Part shown: positions 11,557 through 63,657 of the stretch, piece after piece
Layout of the letters: each line of letters opens with the position of its first letter
Position numbering within the stretch: the first letter of the stretch is position 1
IMG/VR virus record: IMGVR_UViG_3300024344_003209
Span: 1 to 64,000 of that record
Reading direction: 5' to 3' (one strand)
Source of the DNA: a virus
Length of the DNA stretch: 64,000 nt
The notes under the pieces: model-generated
Seen by the model: only the letters and a program-made list of their open reading frames with translations
Database searches by the model: none
What the model was told of the DNA's origin: nothing
Made by a program: the position numbers and the translations under genes

Positions 11557-11585
11557 ATTCTAACCTAAACTTTTTTCTAGGTCAA
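11557..11585 (-). promoter_or_regulatory. sigma70-type promoter for nrdA
   Basis: TTGACC-17-TAGAAT. Confidence 0.7.
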
Positions 11586-14149
11586 GCAATATCCTTTAAT
11601 TCTGACAACTTTGTGAATATTTTTTGACTTTGAATCCCAATATCATCAATAAAAACACAATCGTCTCGCTTTGATCCTCTGATTATAACAACGTCGTCTT
11701 TAACTGGTGCTCTGCCGTTAACGAGTTTACTCTCATCGATCTTCTGATTAAACTGAAGACAAGTTATGTTTCCTGTCTCATCAGAGCAAAGTAGACGCAT
11801 ATACTCAGAGCCTTTTTTAGACTTACCTTTAAAATAGTCAGCAACGCTAGATATAAAAACAACTCTCTCTCCGACTCTGCTATTGTTTACATTGTAAATG
11901 CTCATTAGATTTGGAACCTGCTTTGAATAAACTTGCTTTAGTGAGTTAGCATGAGAATAACCCAAAAGTTTCTTTTCGTAATACCAGTTAGCTAAGCTCT
12001 CAGATTTACTGTTCTGCATATAGATGTCTTTATAGGGTTGGTACTTTTTCTTAACTGTTCCGAACCTAGACTCTTTAATATGAACTTTTCCGTTCTCATC
12101 CTTTCTCTCTGTTAAGTCTTTTATAACTTTAACTAGATCAAAGTCAAATTTTTCTCCAAGAGAATATGCTATCCTTTTCTCTCTTTGTGTTAATAGGTTC
12201 CAAAGCTGAGCCTCTAAGACAATCTTACTTCTGGACTGAGAAAACCCTTCGAATGCTCCTGCTTGTATTAAAGCTGAGAGGACTCCTATTCCTACCTTAG
12301 CTTCACTTGCGGCTTGGAATACCTCAAACTTATTAGCGAAATCAGACCTAAAGTTATTTAACTTTTCTATAGTCTTATCAGATATCCCTTTGATTGATGT
12401 AAGTCCGTACCTAATATTTTCACCTTCAATAGAGAAATCCATTTTAGATTTAGTTATATGGGGTGGGAGTAGTTTAATATCGAATAACCTAAGCTCAACT
12501 TGAATCTTGTTAATTTCTGCAAGAGGATCTGGTTCATGCTTTGTCATTTTAAGTAATGAAAGAAAGAACTCTTTAGGATACTTGAACTTCAAGTAAGTTG
12601 TTATTGCGGCTAAAGCAGCGTAACAAATAGAGTGAGACTTATTGAAAGAGTAATTAGCTGAATCCTCTAATACTTTCCATAAGACATCTCCTACATCAGA
12701 GCTAAGTTTATTCTCTTTAACTTTTTCTGAGATCTTCTTCTTCCACTCTCTTACCTCTTTAACTTTCTTCTTACCTACGATTCGTCTTAGAATCTCTGCT
12801 TCATCAAGAGTAAAACCAATTTTGTGAGCCATTTGCATCAACTGCTCTTGGTATAACGCAACTCCACCAGACTTCTTTAGGATATCGTCAAACAAAGGGT
12901 GAATAGGTTCATATACATCGTTATTAGAATAACTAGCGTACTGATCTACGAAGCCTAAAGCACCCGGTCTTCCTAAGGCTAAAACAGCACTAAGCTCCTC
13001 TAAGCTCTTAGGCTTTACTTTCTGGCACACGCGATAGTTAGTGTCAGCTTCAATCTGAAAAAGACCATGAGGGGTCTCTAGATCCTGAAGATTTCTATAT
13101 ATAAAGGGATCACTGAGGTCAATGTCGGTAATATTAAGTCCAACTTGTTTGCATACGTCATCAACTACAGAGACACTACGTAAACCAAGGATATCAAGTT
13201 TGACATTAAATAAAGATACCCAATTCATATCATAAGATGATACTATAGCTTTATCTGACGTTAATTCTACTGGGCAGCTATCCTGTAACTGGTCATAAGA
13301 AAGAAGAATACCAGAAGCATGGACACTCTTATTTTTAATTAAACCTCTTAACTTAAGAGATATATCGTAAGCCTCTTTGTTTTCTGGGTCATCCGCCCAA
13401 TCTCTGAAATCTGGAACTTCTTCGTATGTTTCCTCGAGGTCTTTTACTTGCCCGAAAATTTTAGGTATGTATCCAGAAACAGTGTTCATCTCTGTTTCGC
13501 TTTTGCTGGCTATAATCTTGCCGCATTCTTTTATTAAAAGCTTTCCGCTTAGGGTGTTGAGTGTTAGTATTTTAGCCGTCTTGCCTTTGAATTTATTATC
13601 TATATATTCTAAGACTTGTTGTCTTTTATAATAGCATACATCATTGTCAATATCAACCATTAGATTTCCATCTAGGTAAGTTATGTCATCAACGACTTTC
13701 TTCTTAGCTCTAATCTTTGATATAAATCTTTCAAAGAATAAATCGTATTTTATCGGATCTAAGTTGGTGACTCCCAAAAGAAACAGAACAAGACTACCGG
13801 CAGCGGAACCACGGCCTAACCCAATTGGGATATCGCTCTTTTTACAAAAATCAATAACATCCCAAGTTAGCAGCATGTAATCTACAAAGCCTAGCTCTAT
13901 CATTGTATCAAGCTCATGCTTAGCTCTGTCAGCGTATTTTTTAGCTTTGGAGGGGTCTATATCCTTAGCTTTGACTTTGGTCTTGTAGCCTTCGTTACAG
14001 AGCTTCTTTAGGATTGAGGTGTTGTCTTCGTCTTTGTCCGCTCCAAGCCTGTCCCTAAGAGATTCGCTTGGCTCGAAAGATGGTAGCCTTACTCCGTGGA
14101 GAGGCAAATCAATTTTTTTAAATTTTTTAATAAAAGTCTCTGTTTTCAT
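11582..14149 (-). CDS. dnaE: family C DNA polymerase (DnaE-like) catalytic core lacking PHP domain
   Basis: GRGSAAGSLV, FFERF, DIDND, KLDILGL, YQEQLMQ, YSFNKSHS and a C-terminal OB fold. Confidence 0.95.
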   Translation of the reverse strand: MKTETFIKKFKKIDLPLHGVRLPSFEPSESLRDRLGADKDEDNTSILKKLCNEGYKTKVKAKDIDPSKAKKYADRAKHELDTMIELGFVDYMLLTWDVIDFCKKSDIPIGLGRGSAAGSLVLFLLGVTNLDPIKYDLFFERFISKIRAKKKVVDDITYLDGNLMVDIDNDVCYYKRQQVLEYIDNKFKGKTAKILTLNTLSGKLLIKECGKIIASKSETEMNTVSGYIPKIFGQVKDLEETYEEVPDFRDWADDPENKEAYDISLKLRGLIKNKSVHASGILLSYDQLQDSCPVELTSDKAIVSSYDMNWVSLFNVKLDILGLRSVSVVDDVCKQVGLNITDIDLSDPFIYRNLQDLETPHGLFQIEADTNYRVCQKVKPKSLEELSAVLALGRPGALGFVDQYASYSNNDVYEPIHPLFDDILKKSGGVALYQEQLMQMAHKIGFTLDEAEILRRIVGKKKVKEVREWKKKISEKVKENKLSSDVGDVLWKVLEDSANYSFNKSHSICYAALAAITTYLKFKYPKEFFLSLLKMTKHEPDPLAEINKIQVELRLFDIKLLPPHITKSKMDFSIEGENIRYGLTSIKGISDKTIEKLNNFRSDFANKFEVFQAASEAKVGIGVLSALIQAGAFEGFSQSRSKIVLEAQLWNLLTQREKRIAYSLGEKFDFDLVKVIKDLTERKDENGKVHIKESRFGTVKKKYQPYKDIYMQNSKSESLANWYYEKKLLGYSHANSLKQVYSKQVPNLMSIYNVNNSRVGERVVFISSVADYFKGKSKKGSEYMRLLCSDETGNITCLQFNQKIDESKLVNGRAPVKDDVVIIRGSKRDDCVFIDDIGIQSQKIFTKLSELKDIA

Positions 14150-22707: not shown

Positions 22708-23050
22708 CTCTTAAAAATTCTAATAATGTTTTAGGTTTTGCCTTATTTATTTTAGGGTCTTCTCCTATCTTCTCTTTATCTAGTATAGCATGTTCTTTTC
22801 TGAAGTCAAGCTTAGAAAGCTCTTTCTGTTTATTTAGATAATTTTTAAATTTTTCAGTGCGAAACTGAGCGAGGCTCTCTATTTTGATGCTATCAAAGGA
22901 AAGATCTTTGAATATTTGCTCTCCGTGATCTTTTATTAAAGACTTAGCAATTACTATTTCTTTTGGCCAGTTTACTTTTTCTGGTTCTTGGCAAAACTTC
23001 CAAACCAGATATTGGTAGATATTATTGATCTTCTTGCGCTTGCTTTGCAT
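22682..23050 (-). CDS. hypothetical protein
   Basis: 122-aa ORF coupled between gmd and recA. Confidence 0.6.
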   Translation of the reverse strand: MQSKRKKINNIYQYLVWKFCQEPEKVNWPKEIVIAKSLIKDHGEQIFKDLSFDSIKIESLAQFRTEKFKNYLNKQKELSKLDFRKEHAILDKEKIGEDPKINKAKPKTLLEFLRDGSKEESK

Positions 23051-24077
23051 AAATAGCTAAGTCACATTTTACCATGTCCTCGATCATTTTGTCAAACGAA
23101 ATCTCTCGTTTCCAGCCAAGTTCTTCTTCTGCGTTTGAAGCGTCTCCGTGAAGTAGGTCAACTTCTGCAGGCCTAAACCATTTCTCGCTAATTTCTGCAA
23201 GAACAGTGTTTTCTTGAAATAACCTAAACTTTGCGTCTAGACCTTCTCCGCTCCAAAGACCGGGAATGCCTGCTGAGCCAAAAGCTTTAGTTACAAAGTC
23301 TTTTACAGAATTAGTCTCTCCGCTTGCTAAAACGTAGTCTTTAGGCTTGTCTTGATTGAGCATAAGCCATATGCCTCTCATAAAATCTCGGCTATCGCTC
23401 CAATCTCTTCTTGAATCTATATTGCCTAGTTTTAGTGTTTCAAAGGTTTGTTTATTTTTAACTTTGTGGTAAATCTCGGCAACCTTTTTAGTTATTTTTC
23501 TAGTGACAAACTCAGAACCTCTTCTTGGCCCTTCGTGGTTAAATAAGATTGAATGGACAGCGTAAAGATCATAAGATTCTCGGTATACTTTTACTAAATG
23601 CCTAGCCGCAGCTTTGGAAGCTCCGTATGGACTCCTAGGTTTGATTGGATGTTTAATATCTTGAGGGCTATAATCAACATCTCCTAGTTCTTCAGATGAA
23701 CCTGCGCTGTAAAACCTACAGTCTGGTTTATGTTTTCTGATTGCTTCTAAGCACCTAATGACACCAGAGGCATTAATATCAAAAACACTCAGGGGAGTGT
23801 CCCAACTAACGCCAACGTAAGAATTAGCTCCAAAGTTAATAAAATAGTCGGGTTGTATTTTGATGACTAGATCATTTATGCTTGAAGAATCTGTAAGTTC
23901 TCCGTCAACTAAAGTAAACCTATCGTGAGCAATAAATGATTTAATGTTAGTAAGGTTAGGTGTTCCTGAGCGGCGCTGCATTCCATACACTTTATTATCT
24001 GTGTTATTTAAAAGGTACTCAGCCATATTAGAGCCATCTTGACCTAAAACGCCAGTTATTAAAACTTTCTTACTCAT
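23022..24077 (-). CDS. gmd: GDP-mannose 4,6-dehydratase
   Basis: ITGVLGQDGS, PRSPYGASK, LFNHEGPRRG.EFVTRKIT, LGNIDSRRDW, FRPAEVDLL.GD. Confidence 0.95.
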   Translation of the reverse strand: MSKKVLITGVLGQDGSNMAEYLLNNTDNKVYGMQRRSGTPNLTNIKSFIAHDRFTLVDGELTDSSSINDLVIKIQPDYFINFGANSYVGVSWDTPLSVFDINASGVIRCLEAIRKHKPDCRFYSAGSSEELGDVDYSPQDIKHPIKPRSPYGASKAAARHLVKVYRESYDLYAVHSILFNHEGPRRGSEFVTRKITKKVAEIYHKVKNKQTFETLKLGNIDSRRDWSDSRDFMRGIWLMLNQDKPKDYVLASGETNSVKDFVTKAFGSAGIPGLWSGEGLDAKFRLFQENTVLAEISEKWFRPAEVDLLHGDASNAEEELGWKREISFDKMIEDMVKCDLAIYAKQAQEDQ

Positions 24078-24116: not shown

Positions 24117-24797
24117 CTAATTAAATATTGGGTAAAGTTTTTCTGCTACTTTAAACTGCCATTCGTAATCAATATCGAAGGCCTCTAGCTCTTCCATTAC
24201 AAAAAGCTCAGGCTCTGGCGGTGAATTAGAGTCCATCCAATAGCCTTGCGAAATGAAATCCATTCTGCTAGCATAAAGACAATGAGCTGCTTCGAAAACT
24301 GGCTCGGCAATCTTAGTATTCATTATTGTGTGGCTTTTCCAGTCTGTAATAGACTTGCCTTCTTTATTCCAATAATAAGTTTTCTTCTCAAATACGGCAA
24401 ATCCTCCATCTTTCTCTGAATTTAAAAAACTTTTAATAAAAGAGTCTATAGTTTCTATCTTTAGAAGAGGGTTGCACGCACTAACTAGCACAACATATTT
24501 AAAAGGTAAATCTTTATGCCATTCATAAATTTCTGATAAAGGGTCTCCCTCTGACTTTGCTGAAGTCTCACTTCTGTTGTATACATTTATGCCATGTTCA
24601 TTCGCTATGTTTTTAAGTTCTGGCTCGTAAGCAGATAAAAAGATATTGTCGATCGAGATCGCCTTTGACTTTTTTAACTTATTAAATAATATGCTGACTA
24701 AAGAAGAGCCACAAAAGGGCTTTATCATTTTTTTTGGCAACCTTTGTGAGCCAAGCCTAGCTTGTACTACTAAGCAAACTTCATTTATATTTTTCAT
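24117..24797 (-). CDS. CMP-nonulosonic acid synthetase (NeuA/PseF-like cytidylyltransferase)
   Basis: QARLGSQRLPKK, CNPLL and FDIDYEWQF motifs. Confidence 0.88.
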   Translation of the reverse strand: MKNINEVCLVVQARLGSQRLPKKMIKPFCGSSLVSILFNKLKKSKAISIDNIFLSAYEPELKNIANEHGINVYNRSETSAKSEGDPLSEIYEWHKDLPFKYVVLVSACNPLLKIETIDSFIKSFLNSEKDGGFAVFEKKTYYWNKEGKSITDWKSHTIMNTKIAEPVFEAAHCLYASRMDFISQGYWMDSNSPPEPELFVMEELEAFDIDYEWQFKVAEKLYPIFN

Positions 24798-24970
24798 TTT
24801 AATTTTCCTAAGAGCTCAGATATTTCGTTATCTGATTTATTTATTCTCTTGATAAGGTTTTTTGTTTCTTCTGGAGCATGTTTTAGCGCAAGACGGAGTA
24901 TGTCCATCCAGTTTACATTATTTTTGCTCCTTACTTCCTGTATTGCATCTATGACTTCTAAATCTTTCAT
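24794..24970 (-). CDS. 58-aa helical protein (not in ORF track)
   Basis: MKDLEVIDAIQEVRSKNNVNWMDILRLALKHAPEETKNLIKRINKSDNEISELLGKLK; ATGA overlaps at both ends fill the gap exactly. Confidence 0.8.
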   Translation of the reverse strand: MKDLEVIDAIQEVRSKNNVNWMDILRLALKHAPEETKNLIKRINKSDNEISELLGKLK

Positions 24971-25407
24971 TTTTTTAAAATATAATACAAAAGGTCTTCG
25001 CTTTTTTTAGTGCGTAATTCAAAGCCGCTTCTTTCTGCTGCTTTTATTGAGGCTATATTGTCTTTTTTTATAGCACATAGAAACTCACCTTCCTTATTGT
25101 GAATAAAAAGCCTTATCATTAACTCTCCTAGTTTTTTACCTTGCTCGTTAGGACTGATGATGTAAGACAACTCGTAGCTATTTTTGCCTATAATATCTTG
25201 TCTTATTGTCCCTGCTGGATTGTTATGTACTAAAAATAAATATTGTTTTTTATTTTCGTCTTTAATTAAATTTTTTATGTACTGTTTGTGATTGTCTTCT
25301 TTTATTTCTTCTGTACTTATAGAGCGTTGTCTGACTGCGGGATCGTTCCTCCATTTTAAAAGTATTTCCCAGTCTTCAAAAACTATTGGTTTAAAGGCAA
25401 AATTCAT
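24967..25407 (-). CDS. GNAT N-acetyltransferase, PseH-like
   Basis: LKWRNDP.VR, GTIR.D, QGKKLG and NIASIKA.E..GF. Confidence 0.8.
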   Translation of the reverse strand: MNFAFKPIVFEDWEILLKWRNDPAVRQRSISTEEIKEDNHKQYIKNLIKDENKKQYLFLVHNNPAGTIRQDIIGKNSYELSYIISPNEQGKKLGELMIRLFIHNKEGEFLCAIKKDNIASIKAAERSGFELRTKKSEDLLYYILKK

Positions 25408-25421
25408 CTTACTTTTCGTTA

Positions 25422-26429
25422 TTAAAATCTTTCTGTGTAGATTTCCAAGCCAGATATTGCTTGGTCTACATCAAAGTCCGCTGAAACTTTTTGTCCTATT
25501 GCAAATTCGTAGTTTATAGCGGGTATGTCATATTCAAAACAGGGTCTTTTTGTTGTTATGTTATCTTCTGACAAAATATCTCCTTTTTTTATTTGTTTTT
25601 TAGCTACGATAGATCTCATAGCAAACCTAAATTTCTCTTCAGATTTAGTAAAATGAGAATCCTTGACGCCGCATGCTTCTTCCGTAAACCTAATATACTC
25701 AACCATTTTTTGTAACTCGTCTGCCTCTAATGCAAATTTATGATCTGGCCCGATTAGGTTTCTATCTAAAGTAAAATGTTTCTCTATTACTTGAGCGCCA
25801 AGAGCAACAGCTAGTGATGGAGTTAGTATGGAGGTTGAATGATCAGATAAGCCGACCTTGCAATCGAACCTTAAACTTTTACTTGAAAACATAGACTTCA
25901 AATTTAAATCTGAAGTAGGAGTTGGGTAAGCGTTGTTGCAGTGTAGGAGAGTAAGCTCATTAGAGTGCTTCTCGCATATATCAAATATCTTACCTAAATA
26001 GTTAGCCGGAAAACCTATCCCTAGTGATATAACTAAGGGTAATTTAGAAGAAGCTACCATCTCGACGAATCTAAAATCTGTTGATTCAAAACCGGAAATT
26101 TTCAATCTATTAACACCTATGCCGACTAACTCTTCTACAGCCTTCTCGTCAAAAGGGGTAGACATAAATTCTATACCTTTGCCATCACAATATGACTTAA
26201 GCTGAGGTTGCCACTCTCTTGGCATTTCTATTCCTTTAATGAGGTTGTTTATGTCTTTGTAACCAGCAAAATCTGGTGTGTTTTTTCTGTATAGAGTGTC
26301 AGAAGAATAAGTCTGGAACTTTACAGCGTCACAACCAGAGACCACAGCTAAATCAACTAGCTCTAAGGCTTGTTTAAACTTTCTGTCGTGGTTGGCTCCT
26401 GCCTCAGCTATGATAAAAGTCTTATTCAT
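25422..26429 (-). CDS. nonulosonic acid synthase (NeuB/PseI/LegI family) with C-terminal SAF domain
   Basis: IIAEAGANH, AVKFQTY, STPFD, LLHC...YP, GLSDH, IEKHFTLDR...GPDH, RSIVA. Confidence 0.92.
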   Translation of the reverse strand: MNKTFIIAEAGANHDRKFKQALELVDLAVVSGCDAVKFQTYSSDTLYRKNTPDFAGYKDINNLIKGIEMPREWQPQLKSYCDGKGIEFMSTPFDEKAVEELVGIGVNRLKISGFESTDFRFVEMVASSKLPLVISLGIGFPANYLGKIFDICEKHSNELTLLHCNNAYPTPTSDLNLKSMFSSKSLRFDCKVGLSDHSTSILTPSLAVALGAQVIEKHFTLDRNLIGPDHKFALEADELQKMVEYIRFTEEACGVKDSHFTKSEEKFRFAMRSIVAKKQIKKGDILSEDNITTKRPCFEYDIPAINYEFAIGQKVSADFDVDQAISGLEIYTERF

Positions 26430-27504
26430 TTATTATCTTTATTATTTTATCTAAATCTTGTTTAGTTAAATTTTGATGAATGGGTAGATTGATTACTCTG
26501 TCTTCTAGGGACTCTGAGTTTTCAAGACTAACATTAAGGCATTTATCTTTGTAGTATTTAGTTTTGTGCAAAAGCGGATAATGAAAAGATGCTGCTGCCC
26601 CTTTATTAATAAGCTTACGTCTTAGCTCGGTTGAAGATAACTGCGATTTTAAAATGAGAGTGCATAGGTAGTAAGATGAATTTTTGTCATGCTTGGTAAA
26701 GTAGCCTATGTTTTTTAATTCAGATTTTAAATATTCATAGTTACTTTTCCTTATATTAATATTTTTTTGAACGCTTTCCATCTGCCCTAAGCCTATAACA
26801 GCATTTATATTATTCATATAAAAATTAAAACCATCTCCTACTATATCGTAAGAAAGATCCGTATTTTTTCTACCAAAATTTCTGTAGTCTCTTACGTAAG
26901 AGTCTGCTTCGCTGTCATTTGTAGCTATCAAGCCTCCATTAGCCATTGTAAGTGGTTTTATTGGGTGGAAAGAAAAGAATGCATAGTCATAATCTATTCT
27001 AGGATTCAAGCAATGAGCAGAGTCTATAACTATAATATCATTCCAATTAGTATCTTTGACTCTTTCTATTAAGCCGGATATATCTGAAATACCTCCGTAT
27101 AAAACAGGCATAAAAACAGATTTATTAAAAGTTGCGTTATGTTGCCTCTCTAAATGAAATCGTCTTATATCCCAATAAGAATCAAAATTTACTGACAGAT
27201 TTTCATCTACATCTAAAAAATAAACATTATGACCATTAGCCATTGCTGCCCAAGCTGGAGAAGTAAATCCTATAGATGGAGTGTACACATCGCAAGACCC
27301 ATGCTTGCTGTAAAGATAAGAGAATAAGCAAAAGGCGGCGGAAGAAGCAGAATTTATACCTATATTATAGTCTTTTTTGGAAAAAGATTTGAACGATTGC
27401 TCGAACTTCGACACTTCTGAGCCAAAACCTAAAGATCCACCTCTAAGTAAATCAGAGACAGACTTTATTGTGCTTTCTTCTATTGTGGCTTCGAAGCAGT
27501 TCAT
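26422..27504 (-). CDS. PLP-dependent sugar aminotransferase (DegT/PseC-like)
   Basis: IDSAH, FSFHPIKPLT..NGG, GFNFYM and LPIH motifs. Confidence 0.88.
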   Translation of the reverse strand: MNCFEATIEESTIKSVSDLLRGGSLGFGSEVSKFEQSFKSFSKKDYNIGINSASSAAFCLFSYLYSKHGSCDVYTPSIGFTSPAWAAMANGHNVYFLDVDENLSVNFDSYWDIRRFHLERQHNATFNKSVFMPVLYGGISDISGLIERVKDTNWNDIIVIDSAHCLNPRIDYDYAFFSFHPIKPLTMANGGLIATNDSEADSYVRDYRNFGRKNTDLSYDIVGDGFNFYMNNINAVIGLGQMESVQKNINIRKSNYEYLKSELKNIGYFTKHDKNSSYYLCTLILKSQLSSTELRRKLINKGAAASFHYPLLHKTKYYKDKCLNVSLENSESLEDRVINLPIHQNLTKQDLDKIIKIINE

Positions 27505-28838
27505 GAGTGAAAGAAGTTCATTGAGTAATAAAGTTTTCTCTCGTATACTTCTGGTTTCCTGAAAAATTCTATATGAGAGCCAATTTCTGCGTTATTCCAA
27601 TGAGCATATTTAGGCCCTCTTAAAATCCTATATAAGAGCTTGAAATTTAATTTATAAGATACAAATCTTTCGTCGCTAAAGTCTGCCTTATTTATGACAT
27701 TATATCCGCTTCCGTCGGCAGAAATCTTTAACATCTTTTCTTCTGGTAAATAAATGTAGATATTAGTATTAGTGGAAAAAGCTAGCTCTTCTCTTTTCTT
27801 GTTATATCTATTATAGGCTTCTGGTATTAATGATATTATAGAACTTAAACTAGGCTCTTCATCTTTGTCAAATATATATTTTTTATTTATTAAAACCTCT
27901 TCGCAGTGTTTTATTTGAGCCTCTCTATCTAAGGGTTTGTATTCTGGAATTGATTCGTTGTTAAGATTAAAAGAGGAAAAAGAGTTTAAGAGTAAGCCTT
28001 TACTTGAGTTGTTCTTTTCTTTGTAGAAATATAAAGCTTCGTCTAGAGTTGGCACTACCCTAAATCTCTCTAATTTAGCATTTCTACCAGATAGAACGTA
28101 AGTTCCAGCGAAGGGCATGTAGTATTTTGGTTGGACTTGATTTATGTAATCCAAACCCATATTAAGAAAATGATTTTTCTTTTTTACGCCATATCTATTA
28201 AGTTTATCTTTGTCAGAGTAACATGACCAACATTGAGGGTAAGACCCTGCTCCTGCATAACCAACTAAAAGCAAGTCAACAGGCTTGTGATTTTTTAAGG
28301 CTCTACTTAATGCGGTCTTGGAAAGCTCGTAAGGGCAATCATTTACATTAAGTATGCAATAACTAGAACTCTCAAATACAGACATTGTGTCTATACCTGT
28401 AGAGCCGCCGTCTACGCTTTTTGATTTACCGCACCCAAAGAATTTAAAACATATTTCTGGGTTGCAATCGTCAGAGGCATATATATGAATGTTAAGATCC
28501 GCTCCACATTTAAACTTTTCTCCGTGTTTTAACTCTATGACGTTTCTTCCTAATCTAGTTAAATTTCTTTTTAGGAATGGCTCATCGTACTTATGTATAA
28601 GCACAGGTATATCTTTTCTTATTCTCTTTAATGTCTCTTCACTAAGGTGGTCAGGATGTATGTGGCTAATATAAATATAATCTACGTCGTCGAACATAGA
28701 AAAATCCACCTCATCTAAAGAAGGGTGAATAGTCCAAGAGCCATAATATTCATCCCCAACTAACCAAGGATCACATAAGACTTTAGTGCCTTTGTTCTCT
28801 ATTAAAACTGCTGCCGAAGAAATATGAGTTATCTTCAT
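27501..28838 (-). CDS. metallo-beta-lactamase-fold protein resembling CMP-Neu5Ac hydroxylase (no Rieske domain)
   Basis: CDPWL.G..YYGSW, YIYISHIHPDHL, ILNVND, YAGAGSYP and PFAG resemble the CMAH catalytic domain. Confidence 0.7.
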   Translation of the reverse strand: MKITHISSAAVLIENKGTKVLCDPWLVGDEYYGSWTIHPSLDEVDFSMFDDVDYIYISHIHPDHLSEETLKRIRKDIPVLIHKYDEPFLKRNLTRLGRNVIELKHGEKFKCGADLNIHIYASDDCNPEICFKFFGCGKSKSVDGGSTGIDTMSVFESSSYCILNVNDCPYELSKTALSRALKNHKPVDLLLVGYAGAGSYPQCWSCYSDKDKLNRYGVKKKNHFLNMGLDYINQVQPKYYMPFAGTYVLSGRNAKLERFRVVPTLDEALYFYKEKNNSSKGLLLNSFSSFNLNNESIPEYKPLDREAQIKHCEEVLINKKYIFDKDEEPSLSSIISLIPEAYNRYNKKREELAFSTNTNIYIYLPEEKMLKISADGSGYNVINKADFSDERFVSYKLNFKLLYRILRGPKYAHWNNAEIGSHIEFFRKPEVYERKLYYSMNFFHS

Positions 28839-28839
28839 T

Positions 28840-29829
28840 TTATTCTAATCCTGACTTTATTAGTGAGATAAGATGGCTTATATCATCATTTATATGTAGC
28901 GAAGAATTCAACTCTCGACCTTCGTACTTAGGCCAGTCTGACTGATAATTTATCTTGCTGTACTGAGGTCTCACTTGGATTAGATCATGAGTCGGAGCTA
29001 AGAAAGAAAAAGGCAATTCTGTGATAGAGAGCATATCCTCATGTATCTTTTCTCCGGGCCTCATTCCTGTAATTTTAGTTGGTATATCTTCTCCGTTTTT
29101 ACCGGAAATATTTTTTACTGCCTCTATAATAGACCCCATCTTAAAAGAATTTATTTGAGGTATAAAAACCTCACCACCTAAAGAATGGATAATAGCGTTT
29201 AACACTGTATCAACTGCGTCGTCTAGGGTAAACAAAAACCTAGAACATTCTAAAGAAGTGATGTTTATGCGTTTGTTTTCTTTGATGAGATCCATCCATA
29301 GTGGAATAAAGGATCCTCTGCTGGCTATAACATTCCCGTACCTTACTGATAGGAACTTAGTAGAGTTGGAGTTATAGTTATAGTTAGTAAAAATTCTTTC
29401 TGCTATGAACTTGGTGGAACCATAAACATTAACAGGCATACAAGCTTTATCTGTTGATATTAAAGCGCACTTGGAGACATCTGACTCTAAGCTAGCTCTA
29501 GCAACGTTATCAGAGCCTTCTATATTTGTCTTTACGCATTCGTCTGGATGACGCTCCATATCGTCCACCCTCTTCATGGCAGCGGTATGTATAACCAGAT
29601 CGGGTCTTTCTAAAAGCAAGGAGGTCTTAAGCTTTCTGTAGTCTCTGACATCGCCAATAATTGTTTTTACGTCTTTATCTTGTCCGAAATAAAGAGCCTG
29701 TTTTCCTTCATCCCTGCTGTAAACAACTAGTGAAGAATTGCTAGATTTAAGTCTTTTTATAAGACTTCTACCGAGCGATCCGGTACCGCCTGTTATGAAT
29801 ATTTTTTTATCTGAAAAGAAATCTGACAT
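28840..29829 (-). CDS. UDP-GlcNAc 4,6-dehydratase (PseB/FlaA1-like)
   Basis: TGGTGSLG, YSRDE.KQ, STDKA..PVNVYG.TK, RYGNV..SRGS, RPGEKIHE. Confidence 0.9.
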   Translation of the reverse strand: MSDFFSDKKIFITGGTGSLGRSLIKRLKSSNSSLVVYSRDEGKQALYFGQDKDVKTIIGDVRDYRKLKTSLLLERPDLVIHTAAMKRVDDMERHPDECVKTNIEGSDNVARASLESDVSKCALISTDKACMPVNVYGSTKFIAERIFTNYNYNSNSTKFLSVRYGNVIASRGSFIPLWMDLIKENKRINITSLECSRFLFTLDDAVDTVLNAIIHSLGGEVFIPQINSFKMGSIIEAVKNISGKNGEDIPTKITGMRPGEKIHEDMLSITELPFSFLAPTHDLIQVRPQYSKINYQSDWPKYEGRELNSSLHINDDISHLISLIKSGLE

Positions 29830-29869: not shown

Positions 29870-30661
29870 TTAAAAATTTCCTATTTTAGACAAAACATTG
29901 CAATCATGTCCTGCTCCTAAATTATTAAATACCACATCTTGACCTATCTCTTTTTGTAAATACGTTTTTAAGGTTAGATAGTGGTAGTAAAGTAATTTAT
30001 AAGGGTAGCCAGCTTTGCAGGGTTTGTTTTTTTCAAAAGAATGATTGTTTAAGTCTCCGACTTTGTAATCTTTAGAAGGTGGGCCATCTATGCCAGCAAA
30101 ATCAACTTGGCTAGCCCCTAGTAAAACTGCTAAAATAATTAGCTTAGGAGCAACTCCTATTTTGCCTTGAAATCTTAAAACACAATCAAAAACATTATTG
30201 GGTATTGTGTCATTTAATACTTTTACATTATCTGAACTTTTATTGTAGTCTTCAAAGCCTACTAATGTGTTGTTTTTAGTTACATAATCAATAAACTTAT
30301 CTCCTTTCAAATCTACCTCGTCGCATAATAAAATTAAATCTACTTTGCATTTAGATAGTTTTTCATTTAAAAAGAAATGATTGCAAGAAAATATATGGTC
30401 ATATTCATCTGGATTCCAATCGTACCAATTTGTTGTAGGGCCAGCGCCTAAAACTAGGATCTTTTTATTTTTAAACTTTTTTAATTCTGGGTTGTCTCTA
30501 TATATTATCTGAGAAGTTTTTATTAAATCTTTTTGTAAGAAATCGTATCTATTTAAATAATTAGCCCCTCTAGTTTTATTATTAGCGAAGTTTTCGGAGT
30601 TAGCTATAAAACAAGATAAAGGATCACTGTTTTCCCAAGTTAAATCGTAAAAATTCACCAT
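29870..30661 (-). CDS. Maf/DUF115-like (sialyltransferase-like Rossmann fold) protein
   Basis: KILVLGAGPT, FSCNHFF and LGASQVDFAGID motifs. Confidence 0.6.
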   Translation of the reverse strand: MVNFYDLTWENSDPLSCFIANSENFANNKTRGANYLNRYDFLQKDLIKTSQIIYRDNPELKKFKNKKILVLGAGPTTNWYDWNPDEYDHIFSCNHFFLNEKLSKCKVDLILLCDEVDLKGDKFIDYVTKNNTLVGFEDYNKSSDNVKVLNDTIPNNVFDCVLRFQGKIGVAPKLIILAVLLGASQVDFAGIDGPPSKDYKVGDLNNHSFEKNKPCKAGYPYKLLYYHYLTLKTYLQKEIGQDVVFNNLGAGHDCNVLSKIGNF

Positions 30662-31491
30662 TAGCCTCTTAGTTTTCTTCTAACTGGAAACTCAGAAGCT
30701 GATATGTATATTTCTCCATCTCCGTGAGCTTTTTCTAGTTCTCTTACACCACTAACTAACTTAAATAATCCTTGAGGCTCAACTGAGCTCATATGATCAG
30801 ACCCCCACATAGTTCTATCTAAGGTAACATGCCTTTCAATTATACTGGCCCCAAGGTAAACAGAAGCGACAGAGGTTCCTAGCCTGAACTCATGCCCGCT
30901 GTAACCAACTTCGCAATCGTATTTTTCTTTAAGTGTTTTTATGCAAGAAAGATTTAATTCATCTATAGGTGCTGGGTAGGTAGAGTTACAATGGAGAACG
31001 GCTAAATTCTTAGTGTATCGCCTTATAAGGGCAACGCAATCATCTATTTCTTGCTCAGAACTCATACCTGTTGAAATAATTATCTTTTTACCTGTTTTTG
31101 ATGCCTCTGCGACTAAGTTTATATTTGTAATCATAGCCGAAGGTATTTTAATAAACGGTATGTCGTACTGCTGTAAAAACTTCAAACTATCTAAATCCCA
31201 AGGAGAGGCGCTCCAAGATACGTTTTGTTGCTTGCAGTAGTTATCTATCTCGTTATATTCTTCTTGATTAAATTCTACTTTATATTTATATTCTAAGTAG
31301 GTCATCTCGCCCCAAGGAGTTTTCCGTTTTATATTTTTTTGATGTTCTGGAACGCAAACGTCAGGGTTTCTTTTCTGGAATTTAACAGCATCACATCCTG
31401 CTGCAGCAGAAATATCAATAAGTCTTTTGGCTGTATCAAGGCAACCATTGTGATTAATGCCGATTTCCGCTATAATGTAAGTCTTTTTCAT
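30661..31491 (-). CDS. second nonulosonic acid synthase (short NeuB type, no SAF domain)
   Basis: IIAEIGINHNG, VKFQKR, LHCNSTYP, GYSGHE, IERHVTLDR.MWGSD. Confidence 0.92.
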   Translation of the reverse strand: MKKTYIIAEIGINHNGCLDTAKRLIDISAAAGCDAVKFQKRNPDVCVPEHQKNIKRKTPWGEMTYLEYKYKVEFNQEEYNEIDNYCKQQNVSWSASPWDLDSLKFLQQYDIPFIKIPSAMITNINLVAEASKTGKKIIISTGMSSEQEIDDCVALIRRYTKNLAVLHCNSTYPAPIDELNLSCIKTLKEKYDCEVGYSGHEFRLGTSVASVYLGASIIERHVTLDRTMWGSDHMSSVEPQGLFKLVSGVRELEKAHGDGEIYISASEFPVRRKLRG

Positions 31492-32144
31492 GACAATATG
31501 TTTAAACTAACTCCTTTAGAGGATAGCCAATCTTTTATGCTGGGTACAGCTTTTGAATTTAGTACTATGTCCCAAGGTATTTCGCAACCTTTATTGGAAA
31601 CAGAGCCTTCTTTATAGAAATGACTTCCGTGTCTATCTAGATCCCAACCTATTGTAGTTATGGAGGATACTCCAATATGTAAAGCCATGTAGAGAACAGT
31701 CTCCAGCATTATGCCGGGACCTGTGCATCTTTCTGTGCAGGTTTTACTTATCAGAAAATCATCATAATTTTTCTTAAAAGCTAATACATTTTCTTTACCT
31801 CCTATTTCTTCTATTAAAGGTATTCTAAAAAATATATCATGATGTTGTTGTGGGTTCCATCTGGCTCCTAATTCATAGTTGCTGCTAGCGACAACAATTT
31901 CAGGCTTATGATCAACATACCTGTAGGGTATATTCATATAATCTATAGGAAGATTTGAGCAATTCCAGAAATGAAAGTCAGTTTCTTCTGGAAACCTATC
32001 GTAAGCTTGCTTGATAGAAAATACTAGATTATTTTTTAATTTATTTCTAGTATCTTTATTATCGTGTTTGTTTAAAGATGGGCCGCAAGCTAATATGTAG
32101 CAATCTTGCCCGTTTTTGCAATTTTCTAAATCTTTAAGATCCAC
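31488..32144 (-). CDS. Maf/DUF115-like protein
   Basis: CYILACGPSL, ALHIGVSSITTIGWD and HFY motifs. Confidence 0.6.
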   Translation of the reverse strand: MDLKDLENCKNGQDCYILACGPSLNKHDNKDTRNKLKNNLVFSIKQAYDRFPEETDFHFWNCSNLPIDYMNIPYRYVDHKPEIVVASSNYELGARWNPQQHHDIFFRIPLIEEIGGKENVLAFKKNYDDFLISKTCTERCTGPGIMLETVLYMALHIGVSSITTIGWDLDRHGSHFYKEGSVSNKGCEIPWDIVLNSKAVPSIKDWLSSKGVSLNILS

Positions 32145-35050: not shown

Positions 35051-36139
35051 TTACAAATCGTAAAGAAGATTCAAAATATCATTAGTAGTTCTTTTGTAAG
35101 TGAACTCTTTCTGAAGTTTAAGCCCTTCTTCGTTAACTCTATTAGATTCTACTCTTTTTATTGCTTTTTCGCAACTCTCAATGAAAGCGTCTTCATTAAA
35201 ATCAAATATCTTACCTTGATTAAACTCTGATCCTTTATGGAAAAACACCCCATCAGCTGAATCTATTTTAGAATCTGGCTCAAGTAAAACGCTGTTTGCC
35301 TCGTTAGCCCATTCCTTATACCCTGTAGCATTTGTTATAACTGCATGCTTACCTATAGCTACAGAGTGAAACTCAGGCAAACCCCATCCTTCGCCGCCAG
35401 AGCAACCTAGGATTATGTCAGCGGAGTTTAAGTAATCATTGTATACATCATTCTTAGACATGAAATCAAGAAATTGTATATTAAAATATTTCTTTCCGCC
35501 TAACATTCTATTGATCAATACTGGCATTTCTTTTTTTAGAAAATGATTGTGTATCGAACATTGCAGGTGGTACTTTTTATCTCCTCCAAATCTTTTAGCC
35601 CAAGACTGAATTACTTTCTGATGTCTTTTTCTTTTTTCTAGCTTTCCGCAAAGATTGAACACTATTCTTTCGTCATCGTAATACTGCTTGTCTAGCTTAG
35701 AAAAATGTAACGAATCAAAACCTAAAGGTATTACGGTGGTGTGACGAACGTCTTCTTTAAGAAAGACATCTTTTGAGTGTTGGCAGGTGAAGGCTAGCTT
35801 ATCAATATTATTAGCTATGTTAATTTCTGACTCAGTTGGGGAATCTAACTCATAAAATGAAAGCATAACATTCCTTCTTGAAGGATTGTCTAATGCAGTA
35901 GCGTTCAAATGCCATAATTGAAAAACTGGATTTTCTTTACTATGTTTCGAAGATGATTTTCTTATGCAGTCCTTAAGCCATTGAATAAATTTAGGATCCA
36001 AACTGTAAGCGGAAATATCTTCGTTTATAGGGAATAAGCAAGGCTCAAGCCCCTGTTTGTATAGCTCATTTAAGATACAAATAGAGACTTGGCCAAAGCT
36101 TAGACCGTTAACAGGTAGTTTTAAAGCGAAATCGCTCAC
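35051..36139 (-). CDS. GT-B (family 4-like) glycosyltransferase
   Basis: GKLEKRK and SGGEGWGLPEF...A.GK motifs. Confidence 0.85.
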   Translation of the reverse strand: MSDFALKLPVNGLSFGQVSICILNELYKQGLEPCLFPINEDISAYSLDPKFIQWLKDCIRKSSSKHSKENPVFQLWHLNATALDNPSRRNVMLSFYELDSPTESEINIANNIDKLAFTCQHSKDVFLKEDVRHTTVIPLGFDSLHFSKLDKQYYDDERIVFNLCGKLEKRKRHQKVIQSWAKRFGGDKKYHLQCSIHNHFLKKEMPVLINRMLGGKKYFNIQFLDFMSKNDVYNDYLNSADIILGCSGGEGWGLPEFHSVAIGKHAVITNATGYKEWANEANSVLLEPDSKIDSADGVFFHKGSEFNQGKIFDFNEDAFIESCEKAIKRVESNRVNEEGLKLQKEFTYKRTTNDILNLLYDL

Positions 36140-46237: not shown

Positions 46238-46576
46238 CTACCATTTGTCAATAGGACATTTCTCTTGAGTAAAGTACGCTTTAAGCGGCACTACGCATCC
46301 ACACTTTTGGCATCTTTCTCCTTTGTCTGAAAACCAAGGGCAGCTTCTGCATATGGAAGTTCTTTTTGAGTAAAGTTCCTGTTTAGCTACTATTTCTTTT
46401 CCTTGTAAAGCTGCCTTTGTAGTATTAGCGATACTTCTTGTTATATTTTTCGCCATTTTGAATCCGCTAGGCATCTTCACTACTTCTTTTTTTTCTAAAT
46501 TTTTTAAAGATCTAGTTCTAGATGTACTTCCGAAGGAAGGCTCTTCTCCCGCTTTTTCTTTATACTCGTTAGCCAT
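46238..46576 (-). CDS. Cys-rich small protein (DUF6171-like)
   Basis: R..IC.SC......RC.KCGC...LK......CP..KW. Confidence 0.65.
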   Translation of the reverse strand: MANEYKEKAGEEPSFGSTSRTRSLKNLEKKEVVKMPSGFKMAKNITRSIANTTKAALQGKEIVAKQELYSKRTSICRSCPWFSDKGERCQKCGCVVPLKAYFTQEKCPIDKW

Positions 46577-49500
46577 TTTTCATCAAGTCGAACCTTAGTT
46601 GCTCATCACTAATCATAAAGACTTTTCTACCAAAAGGCGAACATTTATGAACACAAGGGCCTGCTTGGAAGTTTTGGTTAAACAAACCATCGGATCTTCT
46701 AACTATCATTTCTGTTTTGTTCGTACCGTAAACAGCAAGAGCCTGAGTAAATTCTGGCTCTATTTTAAATGTTTGTTTTCCAGCAGACGGATCTATTCTT
46801 TCTCTTGATGAAAACTCAAATTCTTGCATAGATGGCCCTATGATATCATCTCCATCAGCTAAGCCAAAATATTCTTCGTAACTTTGTACGTTACCTGTTC
46901 CACCTCTAACATCTCCGTCGGTGCATAAGCTGTGATAGCCTTGTTCCTTGTCGACTGTTCCTATCTTTTCGTTTTTACATATACCTCTAGTTTGCAGAAT
47001 TGTTCCATTTATGTTTTCTATCTTACCTAATCCATCTTCTCCTACAGCGCTCTTAAGGAAGCTAGGCGAAGGCACTATCTCAAATTCTGTCCATTCTATA
47101 GTTGTCTTTAAAAACGTAGACCAAAAAGGTTTTCCGCTTATCTGACACCCAAATATTATTTCGTTCTCGTAAGAAGTGTCTATTATTTCAGATCCAGCTA
47201 TATTGACAATAGAAACATCAGTATCCATAGTTTCGCTTGTAATATCATATTCCTCACTTGTATAAACTAGTTCGCCCCCGAACGCAAAAGCTCTTCTTTT
47301 ATTTAAGTTTGGCAAATCTAATCCTTTCTCTTGCGTAAGAACTTTTCCAGCACTATCTCCAGATACATCTCCATACGAAGCAGGGAAACAAAATACCCCA
47401 TTCTCTTCTGGTATATTTACCTTATTAGGCAGGCCTATATCTTTGGGAATATAATTTGCATCAAACACTTGATCTGTTTTAAACTCTTCAATATCATAAG
47501 TAGCTTTAGTTATATTTGACTTTACTTGACCCTGCAGCCCTTTAAAGCCGGAGAACCAAGCTCTCTTATATTTCTTTTCTTTATGGTCGTAAAAATCTAT
47601 AAAATTTTGCTTAGATAAAGCTTCGTATGTTAATGCTTGATAACTTTCATTTATTCTAACAATCTCTTCTCCTGCATTGCTAGGATCTTCCGGAGAGAAT
47701 GTCATATTAGCCATATCCTCTACATACCTATATTCATATTTTCTATATTTTCTTACCTTTGCGAACACAGGAACATAAGCCCCCAAGAATCTCATGTTAT
47801 TAATAGTTCTAACATAATTATTAAAGACTTCTCCAGTAACAGGAGACGTAGGATTAATACCAAACCCTTTAGGTAGGCTAGGATTTTGCTCTCTTGAAAA
47901 AGAACTTAACCAAGGTTGAGATTTATTGGCTATCTCATTTTTTACAACTCTATATTCCGCTATAGAATTATTATTAACTATTGCTGTTAAGACAGGTTTA
48001 GTTGGTTCTGGGAAAACTTCCTTCTCGCAACTGCCGTCTTCTTTTATAGTTACAGATATCTCTTGAGTAGCTTCTCTTTCGTCTGCTTCATATAGCCCTA
48101 AATGCTTACTGCTTTCTGTGCCTTGTAAATCGCTATATTCATCTTCTGTTGAAATTGCGTAAGATTGAGTATCTTTTATTTCTATGTTACGTTCGTTTAA
48201 ACTATCTTCTCTTGCTTTAATTTTTCTTTCTATATCTTCTACAGTGTTCCAGTTATCGCTTTCTGATACAGCATTTAAAGTATTAACATATTTAGTTAAT
48301 GTAGTTTTAAAATCTGCTATGGCTTGAGCACTTTCTGAGTCATCTACCCCAAAAGACTCCTCGACATATTCTGCTAAAGCTTCTGCCTCATCAGCTAATA
48401 TACCAAAATTCTCTTGGCATTCTCCCGTATCTTCTGTAATATTATTAACTGTGACATCGGCCGTCTTTACCCCTTTATGCTCTGAAAGCGATATATAAGG
48501 CATCTGACGCTCTTTATAGTCTATTGAAATCGAAGAAGCCTGAGTGGCAGTAGCCTGTTTACTTAGTGTGAATTGAGTCAAGCTGTTTATCTTTTCTACT
48601 CTTGTGTCAGAGGGTACGCCAGTTCCCGAGACTCTAGCTCCTAATATTATATTCTTTTGTCCATCGTGATTAACTAGTTTACTATTGTTAGTTAAATTAA
48701 AAGTATGAGTAAAGCTAGAATCCTGTATAACCATACTATGAAAAACAAAAGGAATATCGCCCTTCGCCCTATCTATAACTTTTTGCTTGCCTGCTTCAGA
48801 ACTTACATCAGAATATCCAGCCCCCGAGTCAGAAACCTCTACATAAATAACTTTTCCTGACTCAATATGAGCTATAGCTTTCGAGGTTTTAGTTAGTAAT
48901 CCTTTTTTAGGCTCCGGATCTTCTATTACAATGTCAGGAGCGACCCTGTAGTCAGAACCACCGGACTCTATAACTACCTTAGATATTCCTCCTACTGCTA
49001 TTTTATCTACATAGGATGCTTTTAGTCTATGGGAGAGTCTATACTTATATAATCTCTCATGAGGTATATTAATGTCGTAATTATCAGCTACCCTAGAGTA
49101 TTCATGACAACCAAAAAGACTTACCCCTTCCTTAGGAATAGATATAGAATTCCCTATTAAATGGTTCTCAGCGAGATCAAGGCTAAATATCCCATCTACA
49201 GACTCGCCTATATCAGACTGCCTTATTACAGATCGCCAATCAAAGGGAAGCCTCATTAACTCATTGCGTCTAAAGTGTTTTAACACCCCTTCGTCGTAAT
49301 ACTGGAAAGTCTCATTTTTTATAGCCATCCTGTAAGTGCCAGTAAACGAACCCGCAGTACCAGAAGAACCAGAACTTCCCGAGCTCCCTGAAGGACTAGC
49401 CCCTAAGGAGACTCTAAAATTTTGTTTGTCGTCTATCTCTATGCTTAAATTTTCCTTTCCTGAAACCTGAACCCAGCTACCAGACTCTAATCTCTGTAAG

Positions 49501-52500
49501 TTAAATCTTATTGACTTAGGTTTATTTCTAAACGAAGAAGAGCCATCGTCTTTAGGAGGCTCGAAACCGTTAATAAACCCTTTGACATGGTCCTCCGTTA
49601 AGCTAAAAGACAACTCCATTCCGCCGTCAAGTAATACTGGGTATATGTATTTAACTGTTGCTGGTAAAGGCCCGTCATAAGCTAGCCCGTGATCAGTTGT
49701 AGTACTCCTTAATAATTCATATTTTTTATCAAGACTAAATAACCTATCTAAATTTTCGGTATAAGAAAATGAAGAAGGAGTAAATAGAACGTGCTCTGAA
49801 TCTGCATTGTAATTATTTAAATTAGGTACTTGATAGTCCATATAATCAGCAGCTATGGTATCATCGTTAGTTGTTTTCTTTATTTGGTCAACATAGTAAG
49901 CTGACTCAGTTATAAATATAGAAGTATATAGAGTTTCTAGTAAATCTTTCTTTGCGTCACTAAATAAAAACTCCTCTGTGTCTTGCGCATCAAAATGAAA
50001 AAATGTTTCAGTGTTAAAATCCTTATATTTATAAAGTATTTCTATTTCTCCATTTTCACAGATAAAATAATCTAACTTCTTGCCGCTAATAGAAACTTCA
50101 GCCCCATTAATTAAAATCTTAGCTTCGTCGCCTTCGCCCTCTATATTGCCTCCATTTAATATATATCTATATTCTTTTCCTTTCGTTAGCTTGACTACTA
50201 CTCTAACCTCTTTGTTAAAAATACTTACAAAATCTATAGTAGTATTATTTCGGAATAATATATTTTTAAAGCTTGCAAATATATCTAAGTCATGCCAATA
50301 AATATTCTCATCCAAATCTATTAAAGATGTTCTAGCTTTAGTTTTGTCTCGGTTATTTCCTGTTAAGTCACTTTCGTTAGAGACTAAACCCTCAGCGACA
50401 GCAGATAACTCTAAGTTCGCTCTAACAGAAAATACATTTCCTTCTTGGGTGTATATATTATCTGAAGTTGTAGCAAAAGCTTCGGCTGTATTCGGGCTTT
50501 CGTAACTATCCTCATTTTCCTCGTCAGAAACCCCGACTGAATAATCTTTATAAGAAGGTCTTTCTAGATAAAATCTCTTATTGTTCACTATAATAGGAAA
50601 GTTAAGAGACGTATATTGAGTATCGTCTATTCCGTGATCGTATATTTTATTAATTACCGGATTCTGTCCCCTGTAACCATCTACTCTTCGCCCTTTGTTA
50701 TCTAGTTGAGGCTGCAGGTTGAAGTAGTTTACTATTTTGTATTTATTACCAGAGAACCCTGCGCTGTCTATAATATTAACAGCATCGTAAGTTAAATCTG
50801 TATTTCGTTCGTCGTTATCAAATACATTTAGCACTTCATATAAATTAGAGCCCTTTTCTTCCCCATCTGCTGCTACAGCAAAAATTCTTAAAAAGTACAC
50901 TCTCCCTGCTTTTATTTTATTAGGCCCAGATGTTCCTGCATCATGTTTGAATACTATAGCATCTCCGTTATCTACATTATTTAATCTTATAAAAGTCTTT
51001 CCATTATCAGTAGTCGCTTCTATATCGTTCCATCCACCAAAAGTATTAAGTTTTGCTACTCCTCCGGGTCTTGCTATGTCTTGATAAGATATTGATTCTA
51101 ACTCAGAATCTAATATATATCTAAGTTTAGCTTTGCTTGTATTATTTGTTAGGTATGTTCCTATTTTAGCATCTTTAGTTAAATCATTAAATACTATTTT
51201 TTTGTTAGTTAATTTTTTTAATCTAAACCTAACGCTACTATAAGAAGCTTTATCTCTATTTAAATTAAATCTGAATCCAACCATTGGGTCAGGCCCAGAA
51301 TGCACCCCAAAAGGAACAAAAGAATATCCATGATTATTTTTTAAAGACAAATGAGCTTTATGATTTCTTTGGTTTATCTCTATTTGATTAGCCTTCATGT
51401 ACTCATCAAGAGGCAGGAGTCTTTCGTCTGCATCTCTAACCTCCTTGCTTTGTTGTTCATATCGAGCTTTTATTCTGTCCATAGCTTTTACGCTTTGCTC
51501 TTCTGATATGGCTGAAGAAAAATCTTCATTAAGGCTTCTTACAACCCCGTCGGGAGCAAAAGGCGCACTGTCTTTATCTTCTATAGATAACCTTATTAAG
51601 TCGTGAGGAGCAGAATTTAACTTTAAGGAAGATTTTATCTTGTACTCATAAGCAGGAGATTCTATGTTAGACTGATTTCTTTGATTCTTATATCCAACTA
51701 AATTAACTCTTACCCTTATAACTTTTTCAACTTTATCTTCTATTGTTATCTTTTCATCCCCTGATTGAATTATTGTATAATCTGAAGCTAAGGTGCCCTC
51801 TAGCAATGGTATAGTAAATTCAAAATTTCTCGTGTGGTGCCAATTACCTTTTTCATATTCGTTAATAACAAAAAGACCACCACCTTTTTTATCTACTTCA
51901 TTAATATATCGCCCCTCTATATTTTTTATTTTTCTTCCCTGTATGAGTTCATAAGCAGCGCCGCTTGACACTTTTTCTTCTACCACCGCATTTAGAAAAT
52001 TATTTCTATGTTCGTTAAGAGAAACCTTACTCCAAGCGGGAGATTTAACAGCACTAGTGGGGTCATCTATTTTACTTTGAAATATTTTAGCAAAATCTGT
52101 TTTTTCGTCAGATTTAATAGAGGCGTCTTCAGCTGAATCATCTATATCTTCTACTCCGTATTGAGAAAATTTTAGATCAAAATGATAAGGCATATTTAGC
52201 TTATATTCAGTTAATCCAACACCTTTTATTTTTTCTCCGGGTCCGTAAACTTCTCCATTATACGTTAAAGTAACCTCTTCTGAGTAATCTTTTTGTTCGT
52301 ATTCCTTTTTATTAAAGAGTCTACTGAAATTATCTATTTCAATATTATTTAAATCATAAACAAAATCATAATCAAAAACTTCTTCCGACTCAAAAGAATG
52401 GTATCTATCCGGCTTAAAGCCTGATAAAGTTATTTCGCCTGTTCTTTCGTTAAAGTGAGAGCATTTTGTTATTCTTTCGTGGCCAGTATTGAGACCGTAA

Positions 52501-63635: not shown

Positions 63636-63657
63636 CAAACCTTAAACCTTGCACTTA

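Follow-up and report, generated by a model that had tools for sequence, protein, structure and literature searches.

A Rieske-less metallo-beta-lactamase-fold relative of NamH in a phage nonulosonate operon of pseudaminic type, and its possible role as a tailoring oxygenase

N-glycolyl sugars occur in animals, where N-glycolylneuraminic acid (Neu5Gc) is made by CMAH, and in the mycobacterial cell wall, where NamH is the responsible enzyme. CMAH converts CMP-N-acetylneuraminic acid (CMP-Neu5Ac) into CMP-Neu5Gc, NamH converts UDP-N-acetylmuramic acid (UDP-MurNAc) into its N-glycolyl form UDP-MurNGlyc, and both of them use a Rieske domain. The present work concerns a relative of these enzymes in a 64,000-nucleotide stretch of viral DNA (hereafter the window), that is, positions 1 to 64,000 of the IMG/VR virus record IMGVR_UViG_3300024344_003209, the whole of which has 99,223 bases and an estimated completeness of 67%. 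The gene in question (27501-28838, minus strand) encodes a metallo-beta-lactamase (MBL)-fold protein of 445 amino acids, P0001, and is located in a pseudaminic-type nonulosonate operon between a PseB-like and a PseC-like gene. Judging from its homology, the chances are about even that P0001 is an optional tailoring oxygenase of this operon, most likely one that hydroxylates an N-acyl group; the more specific proposal of an N-glycolyl product, made by analogy with CMAH and NamH, is tentative.

It has been reported that in Rv3818, i.e., NamH, a UlaG/MBL domain is N-terminal and a Rieske domain C-terminal (PMC10050696), and that CMAH has prokaryotic homologs (PMC5767959). In work on Tannerella forsythia, whose strain UB4 possibly carries an N-glycolyl legionaminic acid, the enzymes tailoring nonulosonates are called scarce, and those acting on bacterial nonulosonic acids are said to be largely unidentified (PMC5378307). 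Literature searches combining the MBL fold with pseudaminic acid, or CMAH with metallo-beta-lactamase and Rieske, returned nothing useful.

By sequence, P0001 is a clear relative of the NamH-type UDP-MurNAc hydroxylases. The set used for this comparison consisted of four actinobacterial proteins with an MBL domain, an SCP2_Rv3818 domain (PF25451) and a C-terminal Rieske domain, all of which match PF00355. One of them shares 29% identity with P0001 over residues 1-245 (BLASTP, E 4e-26), and the alignment of the P0001 family with the NamH-type profile by hhalign reaches a probability of 99.8 and an E-value of 3.4e-30 over 311 columns. Moreover, a cluster carrying PF25451 is found among the near neighbours in a protein-language-model search, and some homologs bear the JGI product name 'UDP-MurNAc hydroxylase'. 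When the family profile is compared by sequence with the PDB, FrsH, a diiron monooxygenase, comes out first (E 4.5e-8, residues 2-112), and hydrolases of known structure rank behind it, at E 4e-6 and weaker. This ranking bears on the rival explanation that P0001 is a hydrolytic tailoring enzyme, be it an N-deacetylase whose amine product could be re-acylated, a lactonase or esterase, or a proofreading nucleotide-sugar phosphodiesterase, which we regard as unlikely although it is the most serious of the alternatives: homology to the NamH type stands at E 3e-30, as against E >= 4e-6 for hydrolases of known structure.

The family to which P0001 belongs is large and uncharacterised; in it the MBL domain is followed by an apparently SCP2-like domain, and it forms a Rieske-less sister of the NamH type. 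There are 1687 homologs at E <= 0.001, mostly of 441-449 amino acids and many from marine metagenomes. The PHROGs search gave one weak match only, to a family of unknown function, and tblastn of P0001 against 50,697 phage records gave none, that is to say, no cultured phage in that set carries the gene.

The initial annotation had described an HxHxDH protein of MBL fold that lacks a Rieske domain, and this description is borne out. First of all, the open reading frame at 27501-28838 matches Pfam Lactamase_B_3 (PF13483) with an E-value of 1.1e-10 and 42 bits, the cut-off being 24 bits, and its motif is SHIHPDH at residues 58-64 (H59-H64); the sole match in NCBIfam is a generic model of metal-dependent hydrolases. 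In the Pfam search, neither P0001 nor any of 16 family members matches the Rieske family PF00355, even at E <= 1, and the CxH...CxxH pattern is missing from the P0001 sequence. In the AlphaFold2 model, which was built on 16 homologs and has a mean pLDDT (predicted local distance difference test score) of 89, residues 1-295 make up the MBL domain, which aligns with many MBL-fold structures at Z 20-23 in a structure search. Residues from about 296 to 445 appear to make up an SCP2-like domain; when the C-terminal 155 residues are modelled alone, the pLDDT is 87, and nine of the 11 top structural neighbours are SCP2-fold proteins, at Z values of only 4.6-7.1. The C-terminal domain of the family gives no match to PF25451 in Pfam. 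Because of the NamH-type homology together with the apparently SCP2-like fold of the C-terminal part, P0001 is best described as a NamH without the Rieske domain, plus a cysteine insert.

The conservation of residues was analysed in 40 diverse family members from bacteria and archaea. Invariant in all 40 are D23, H59, H61, D63, H64, D123, C125, C130, C136, D150, N164, N166, D167, G196, A197, P201, H413 and R427, and C203, Y194 and H422 are kept in 39 of them. The four NamH-type proteins likewise show no variation at the positions aligned with D23, H59, H61, D63, H64, D150, N164, N166 and D167. C125, C130 and C136 lie in a Cys-rich insert (residues 122-149), the stretch that holds them falling in a 17-residue gap of the NamH-type proteins in the hhalign alignment, and C203 lies outside it. 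The occurrence of four invariant or nearly invariant cysteines in a lineage that has lost the Rieske domain suggests, from the sequences, a replacement metal or Fe-S centre; such cysteines would be unexpected in a simple hydrolase. It also speaks against hydrolysis that carboxylates occupy the positions where many MBL hydrolases carry His, the His normally seen in MBL motifs 3 and 5 being replaced in this way or absent as read from the alignments. With the 3-His/4-carboxylate ligand set of CmlA and FrsH, the HxHxDH motif is held in common; D123, D150 and D167 are candidates for the further carboxylates, the alignments themselves ending at residue 112.

On this basis the following mechanism may be proposed. 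A metal site, probably of two irons, would be held by H59, H61, D63, H64, D150 and D167, with D123 nearby; it would activate O2 and hydroxylate a C-H bond, either in a nucleotide-linked (UDP-) intermediate or in the CMP-nonulosonate. If NamH and CMAH are a guide, the likeliest target would be the methyl group of an N-acetyl substituent, which would give an N-glycolyl-type sugar. C125, C130, C136 and C203 could form an Fe-S or other metal centre and relay electrons instead of a Rieske domain, and in some hosts the new hydroxyl might then be O-methylated. The named hosts of the MBL gene, which we take to be almost all aerobes, would suit such oxygenase chemistry.

Several observations weigh against this oxygenase reading, and some of them also favour a hydrolase. 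In the model comparison, UlaG-like hydrolases, NAPE-PLD, SaxA and the diiron hydroxylase CmlA (Z 21.0) are tied at Z 21-23, so that the fold alone cannot tell a hydrolase from an oxygenase as far as the model goes, and most of the characterised MBL proteins in this tie are hydrolases; that is to say, the structure comparison proposed in the initial annotation did yield an UlaG-like match, and it left the two chemistries unseparated. Alkyl sulfatases, YjcS among them, are hydrolases and likewise have an MBL domain followed by an SCP2 domain, and the C-terminal domain profile matches the SCP2 domain of NamH without significance (hhalign, E 0.16). With regard to the electron donor, P0001 has no Rieske domain of its own, and no partner reductase is evident. 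The sample comprised 50 cellular genomes with the MBL gene and, for the neighbourhoods, 53 cellular loci; a regular-expression scan for a Rieske or ferredoxin gene near the MBL gene found one plausible case in these 53 cellular loci and none in the viral loci. Finally, no enzymology for any member of the P0001 family was found in the literature. As regards the suggestion in the initial annotation that P0001 hydroxylates an N-acyl group, the homology to the NamH type and the domain layout, with its SCP2-like part and FrsH as the best PDB match, speak in its favour, and the missing Rieske domain speaks against it.

The connection with nonulosonates is seen in the distribution of the gene. Of the 50 cellular genomes with the MBL gene, 44 encode NeuB, compared with 6 of 14 control genomes, and NeuB lies no more than 10 kb from the MBL gene in 13 of the 53 cellular loci; in 17 of 22 viral loci the MBL gene is inside a nonulosonate cluster. 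In the window it lies between a PseB-like and a PseC-like gene, as the initial annotation had placed it, and is translationally coupled to them: its start codon lies 1 nt past the stop codon of the PseB-like gene (28840-29829), and its stop codon and the start codon of the PseC-like gene (26422-27504) share an ATGA overlap. The commonest neighbours of the family are sugar-nucleotide short-chain dehydrogenases/reductases (SDRs), NeuB and a TylF-like methyltransferase. The share of genomes with NeuB, the viral loci, the coupling and the commonest neighbours argue against a second rival, according to which the family acts off nonulosonates, on some other N-acetylated nucleotide sugar or on an SCP2-bound lipid, and its location in sugar clusters is a matter of chance. 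For that explanation, it may be said that about 60% of the cellular loci have no nonulosonate gene within 10 kb, that the immediate neighbours are highly diverse (141 proteins, in which 142 Pfam families are represented) and that SCP2 domains usually bind lipids; taken together, we hold it to be improbable. Within the nonulosonate clusters the MBL gene is an optional and movable insert, present in about one in ten phage clusters, and its position in other carrying clusters varies: it may follow the aminotransferase, NeuB or GNAT gene.

A third explanation, the other alternative of the initial annotation, regards the MBL enzyme as a non-orthologous stand-in for PseG, which would hydrolyse the UDP-2,4-diacetamido-2,4,6-trideoxy sugar and deliver the free sugar to NeuB. 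Its starting point, a cluster without PseG or NeuC, is correct and extends beyond the cluster: the full record of 99,223 bases, about 67% complete by estimate, yields no match at E <= 1 to PseG (TIGR03590) or NeuC (TIGR03568), and neither is found in any of the 22 MBL-bearing viral records, one complete genome included. The PseB-like, MBL, PseC-like, NeuB, GNAT and CMP-transferase genes add up to six, as many as the Pse pathway has; there are also minimal viral sets, for example that of L068 (short NeuB, SDR, MBL and CMP-transferase), and MBL-fold enzymes often cleave phosphodiesters. Even so, we consider this replacement very improbable, and the evidence comes from cells and phages alike. PseG scores over its cut-off in 15 of the 50 cellular genomes with the MBL gene, and six of the 13 cellular loci with NeuB within 10 kb (L010, L030, L032, L034, L036 and L039) have PseG and the MBL gene in one nonulosonate cluster, PseG being a PseG-GNAT fusion in L034 and L036 and falling just under the cut-off in L010, at 146.7 bits. 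The host of L032 is a Halobacillus and that of L034 an Aliiglaciecola. In phages, 79 related nonulosonate loci were gathered by searching viral contigs for proteins related to the long NeuB; 70 of these have neither gene, 7 have the MBL gene only and 2 have PseG only. More than 25 phage clusters have a PseB-like gene, 57-65% identical to that of the window, that directly abuts or overlaps the gene for the aminotransferase. In addition, P0001 has no TIGR03590 match and is of MBL fold, and its nearest relative of known function, NamH, is an oxygenase.

The gap itself is common to clusters with and without the MBL gene. With the curated PseG model, PseG is detected in 0/22 MBL-bearing and 0/49 MBL-less viral records (0/71); virus records are fragments, and three of them are at least 90% complete. 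Since the MBL-less clusters are also without PseG, its lack characterises this type of phage cluster as a whole, and the anti-correlation of the MBL gene with pseG across genomes, which replacement would lead one to expect, is not seen, given the shared clusters and the 70 of 79 loci with neither gene. Neither PseG nor NeuC is present in 25 of the 44 NeuB-bearing, MBL-carrying genomes, a figure which comes without a background rate for MBL-less genomes and is not readable as an anti-correlation. The MBL gene thus does not explain how phage pathways manage without PseG. Nucleotide removal before NeuB could be carried out in the phage clusters by a host enzyme, by a GT-B 'glycosyltransferase' or by an uncharacterised family of 390-residue proteins (L065:8782-10020). 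Candidate GT-B proteins are encoded at 35051-36139 of the window. Epimerase_2, like NeuC, was not found in the 22 MBL-bearing viral records. The 263-residue protein encoded at 29870-30661 was considered as a hidden PseG and ruled out by the GxGPS...DG signature of its family, five of nine members of which are weakly MptE-like/DUF115.

To return to the tailoring oxygenase, the genes that accompany P0001 indicate what else may be done to the sugar. In nine cellular loci, local hidden Markov models detect a TylF-like O-methyltransferase some 1 kb upstream of the MBL gene. It was also observed that in L005, L009, L012, L028, L031, L034 and L046 the TylF-like gene is directly upstream on the same strand. 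The pair looks like a two-gene module of a hydroxylase and an O-methyltransferase; in L068 and L071, class I methyltransferases adjoin the MBL gene. The tailoring genes of the phage clusters form a mosaic that further comprises a PhyH dioxygenase, an FkbM methyltransferase, a formyltransferase, an oxidoreductase of the GFO/IDH/MocA family and a class III aminotransferase. Among non-redundant viral clusters, the formyltransferase (for example L083:10972-11700) is found in 0/13 MBL-bearing and 25/48 MBL-less clusters (Fisher p 4e-4, uncorrected for relatedness, the two sets coming from different queries), and the MBL gene goes with the short NeuB, a Maf-like gene and PhyH, likewise uncorrected for relatedness. 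The formyltransferase and the MBL gene may be alternative N-acyl tailoring cassettes. The same exclusion would also fit a hydrolase, which might be another route to an alternative N-acyl group. As a separate observation, the short NeuB travels with Maf-like genes, and L068-L070 and L074 contain short NeuB, SDR, MBL and CMP-transferase genes and are without the aminotransferase or GNAT.

A fuller version of the oxygenase reading can be put forward as a conjecture that is somewhat less likely than its core. It is conceivable that P0001 is a self-sufficient, Rieske-free N-acyl hydroxylase in which a Cys4 metal centre feeds a diiron MBL site, that marine bacteria, archaea and their phages use it to make pseudaminic or legionaminic acids of N-glycolyl (Neu5Gc-like) type, and that phages exchange it as a cassette with the formyltransferase, the PhyH dioxygenase and methyltransferases, by which the nonulosonate on virions or host surfaces would be varied.

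As for the rest of the operon, all on the minus strand, the PseB-like gene encodes a UDP-GlcNAc 4,6-dehydratase-like protein (Polysacc_synt_2; TIGR03589, 256 bits vs. a cut-off of 408) and the PseC-like gene a DegT-family aminotransferase (TIGR03588, 159 vs. 424 bits). They are followed by a long NeuB-family nonulosonate synthase with an SAF domain, which is PseI-like (25422-26429; 257 vs. 340 bits), a PseH-like GNAT N-acetyltransferase (24967-25407; 52 vs. 93 bits) and a CMP-nonulosonate synthetase-like gene (CTP_transf_3) that is weakly PseF-like (24117-24797; 45 vs. 206 bits). All five Pse-like genes thus score under the curated equivalog cut-offs of NCBIfam; the cluster appears Pse-like by gene content, and the identity of its product is not fixed by that. 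Directly downstream of the CMP-transferase gene is a GDP-mannose 4,6-dehydratase-like (Gmd-like) gene (23022-24077; 336 vs. 415 bits), which hints at a second deoxy-sugar branch. On the other side of the PseB-like gene are the Maf/DUF115 (MptE-like) protein of 29870-30661, a short NeuB paralog of 276 amino acids without the SAF domain (30661-31491) and a second MptE-like (Maf-like) protein (31488-32144). The presence of two NeuB paralogs, short and long, suggests two separate nonulosonate branches. Both Maf/DUF115 proteins are candidate phage-encoded nonulosonate transferases; their homologs are found only in related viral loci.

The window also contains phage replication genes, namely those for a DnaE-like polymerase, a ribonucleotide reductase, a UvsX-like recombinase and a DnaB-like helicase. 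The DnaE-like replicative polymerase (Pol III alpha type; 11582-14149, minus strand) has at most about 33% identity to any of the 50,697 phage records, and by this measure the virus appears to belong to a phage lineage without a close cultured relative. A single open reading frame at 46569-63638 (minus strand) encodes a giant phage protein of 5689 amino acids, which is possibly a target of the Maf-like glycosylation system.

With its thousands of members, its association with genomes that encode NeuB and its repeated appearance in the nonulosonate operons of phages, the P0001 family makes this relative of NamH a concrete and testable candidate for a step of nonulosonate tailoring. If the proposal is true, it would represent an MBL-fold oxygenase that works without the usual Rieske partner.

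In comparison with known systems, P0001 resembles PseG in position only: the MBL gene fills a slot in a pseB-pseC-pseI-pseH-pseF-like operon without pseG, but the folds are unrelated (MBL vs. GT-B), some cellular clusters contain both PseG and the MBL gene, and most of the related phage clusters do without the latter. With the UlaG/COG2220-type hydrolases, SaxA and NAPE-PLD, it shares the nearest fold (Z 21-23) and the Lactamase_B_3 match; unlike them, it has extra domains, cysteines, and carboxylates at their His positions, and the sequence similarity is weak (E 1e-5 or worse). CmlA and FrsH are likewise MBL-fold oxygenases without a Rieske domain and are close in structure (Z 21.0 and 19.7, respectively), but they act on amino acids tethered to carrier proteins of nonribosomal peptide synthetases, possess an extra N-terminal domain, and are similar to P0001 in sequence only over the first ~110 residues. 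The link to animal CMAH is made through the NamH-type proteins and published statements, rather than by direct sequence comparison. The closest system is NamH (Rv3818), with which P0001 shares a homologous N-terminal MBL domain (24-29% identity, with the CDPW, SHxHxDH, NxNDC and PxAG motifs in common) and a setting in nucleotide-sugar biosynthesis; the domain that follows appears SCP2-like by fold. P0001 differs from NamH in lacking the Rieske [2Fe-2S] domain, in having a Cys-rich insert of 17 residues or longer with the four conserved cysteines in or beside it, and in an SCP2-like domain without detectable sequence similarity; NamH belongs to peptidoglycan metabolism, whereas the P0001 family is found in nonulosonate clusters of phages, bacteria and archaea.

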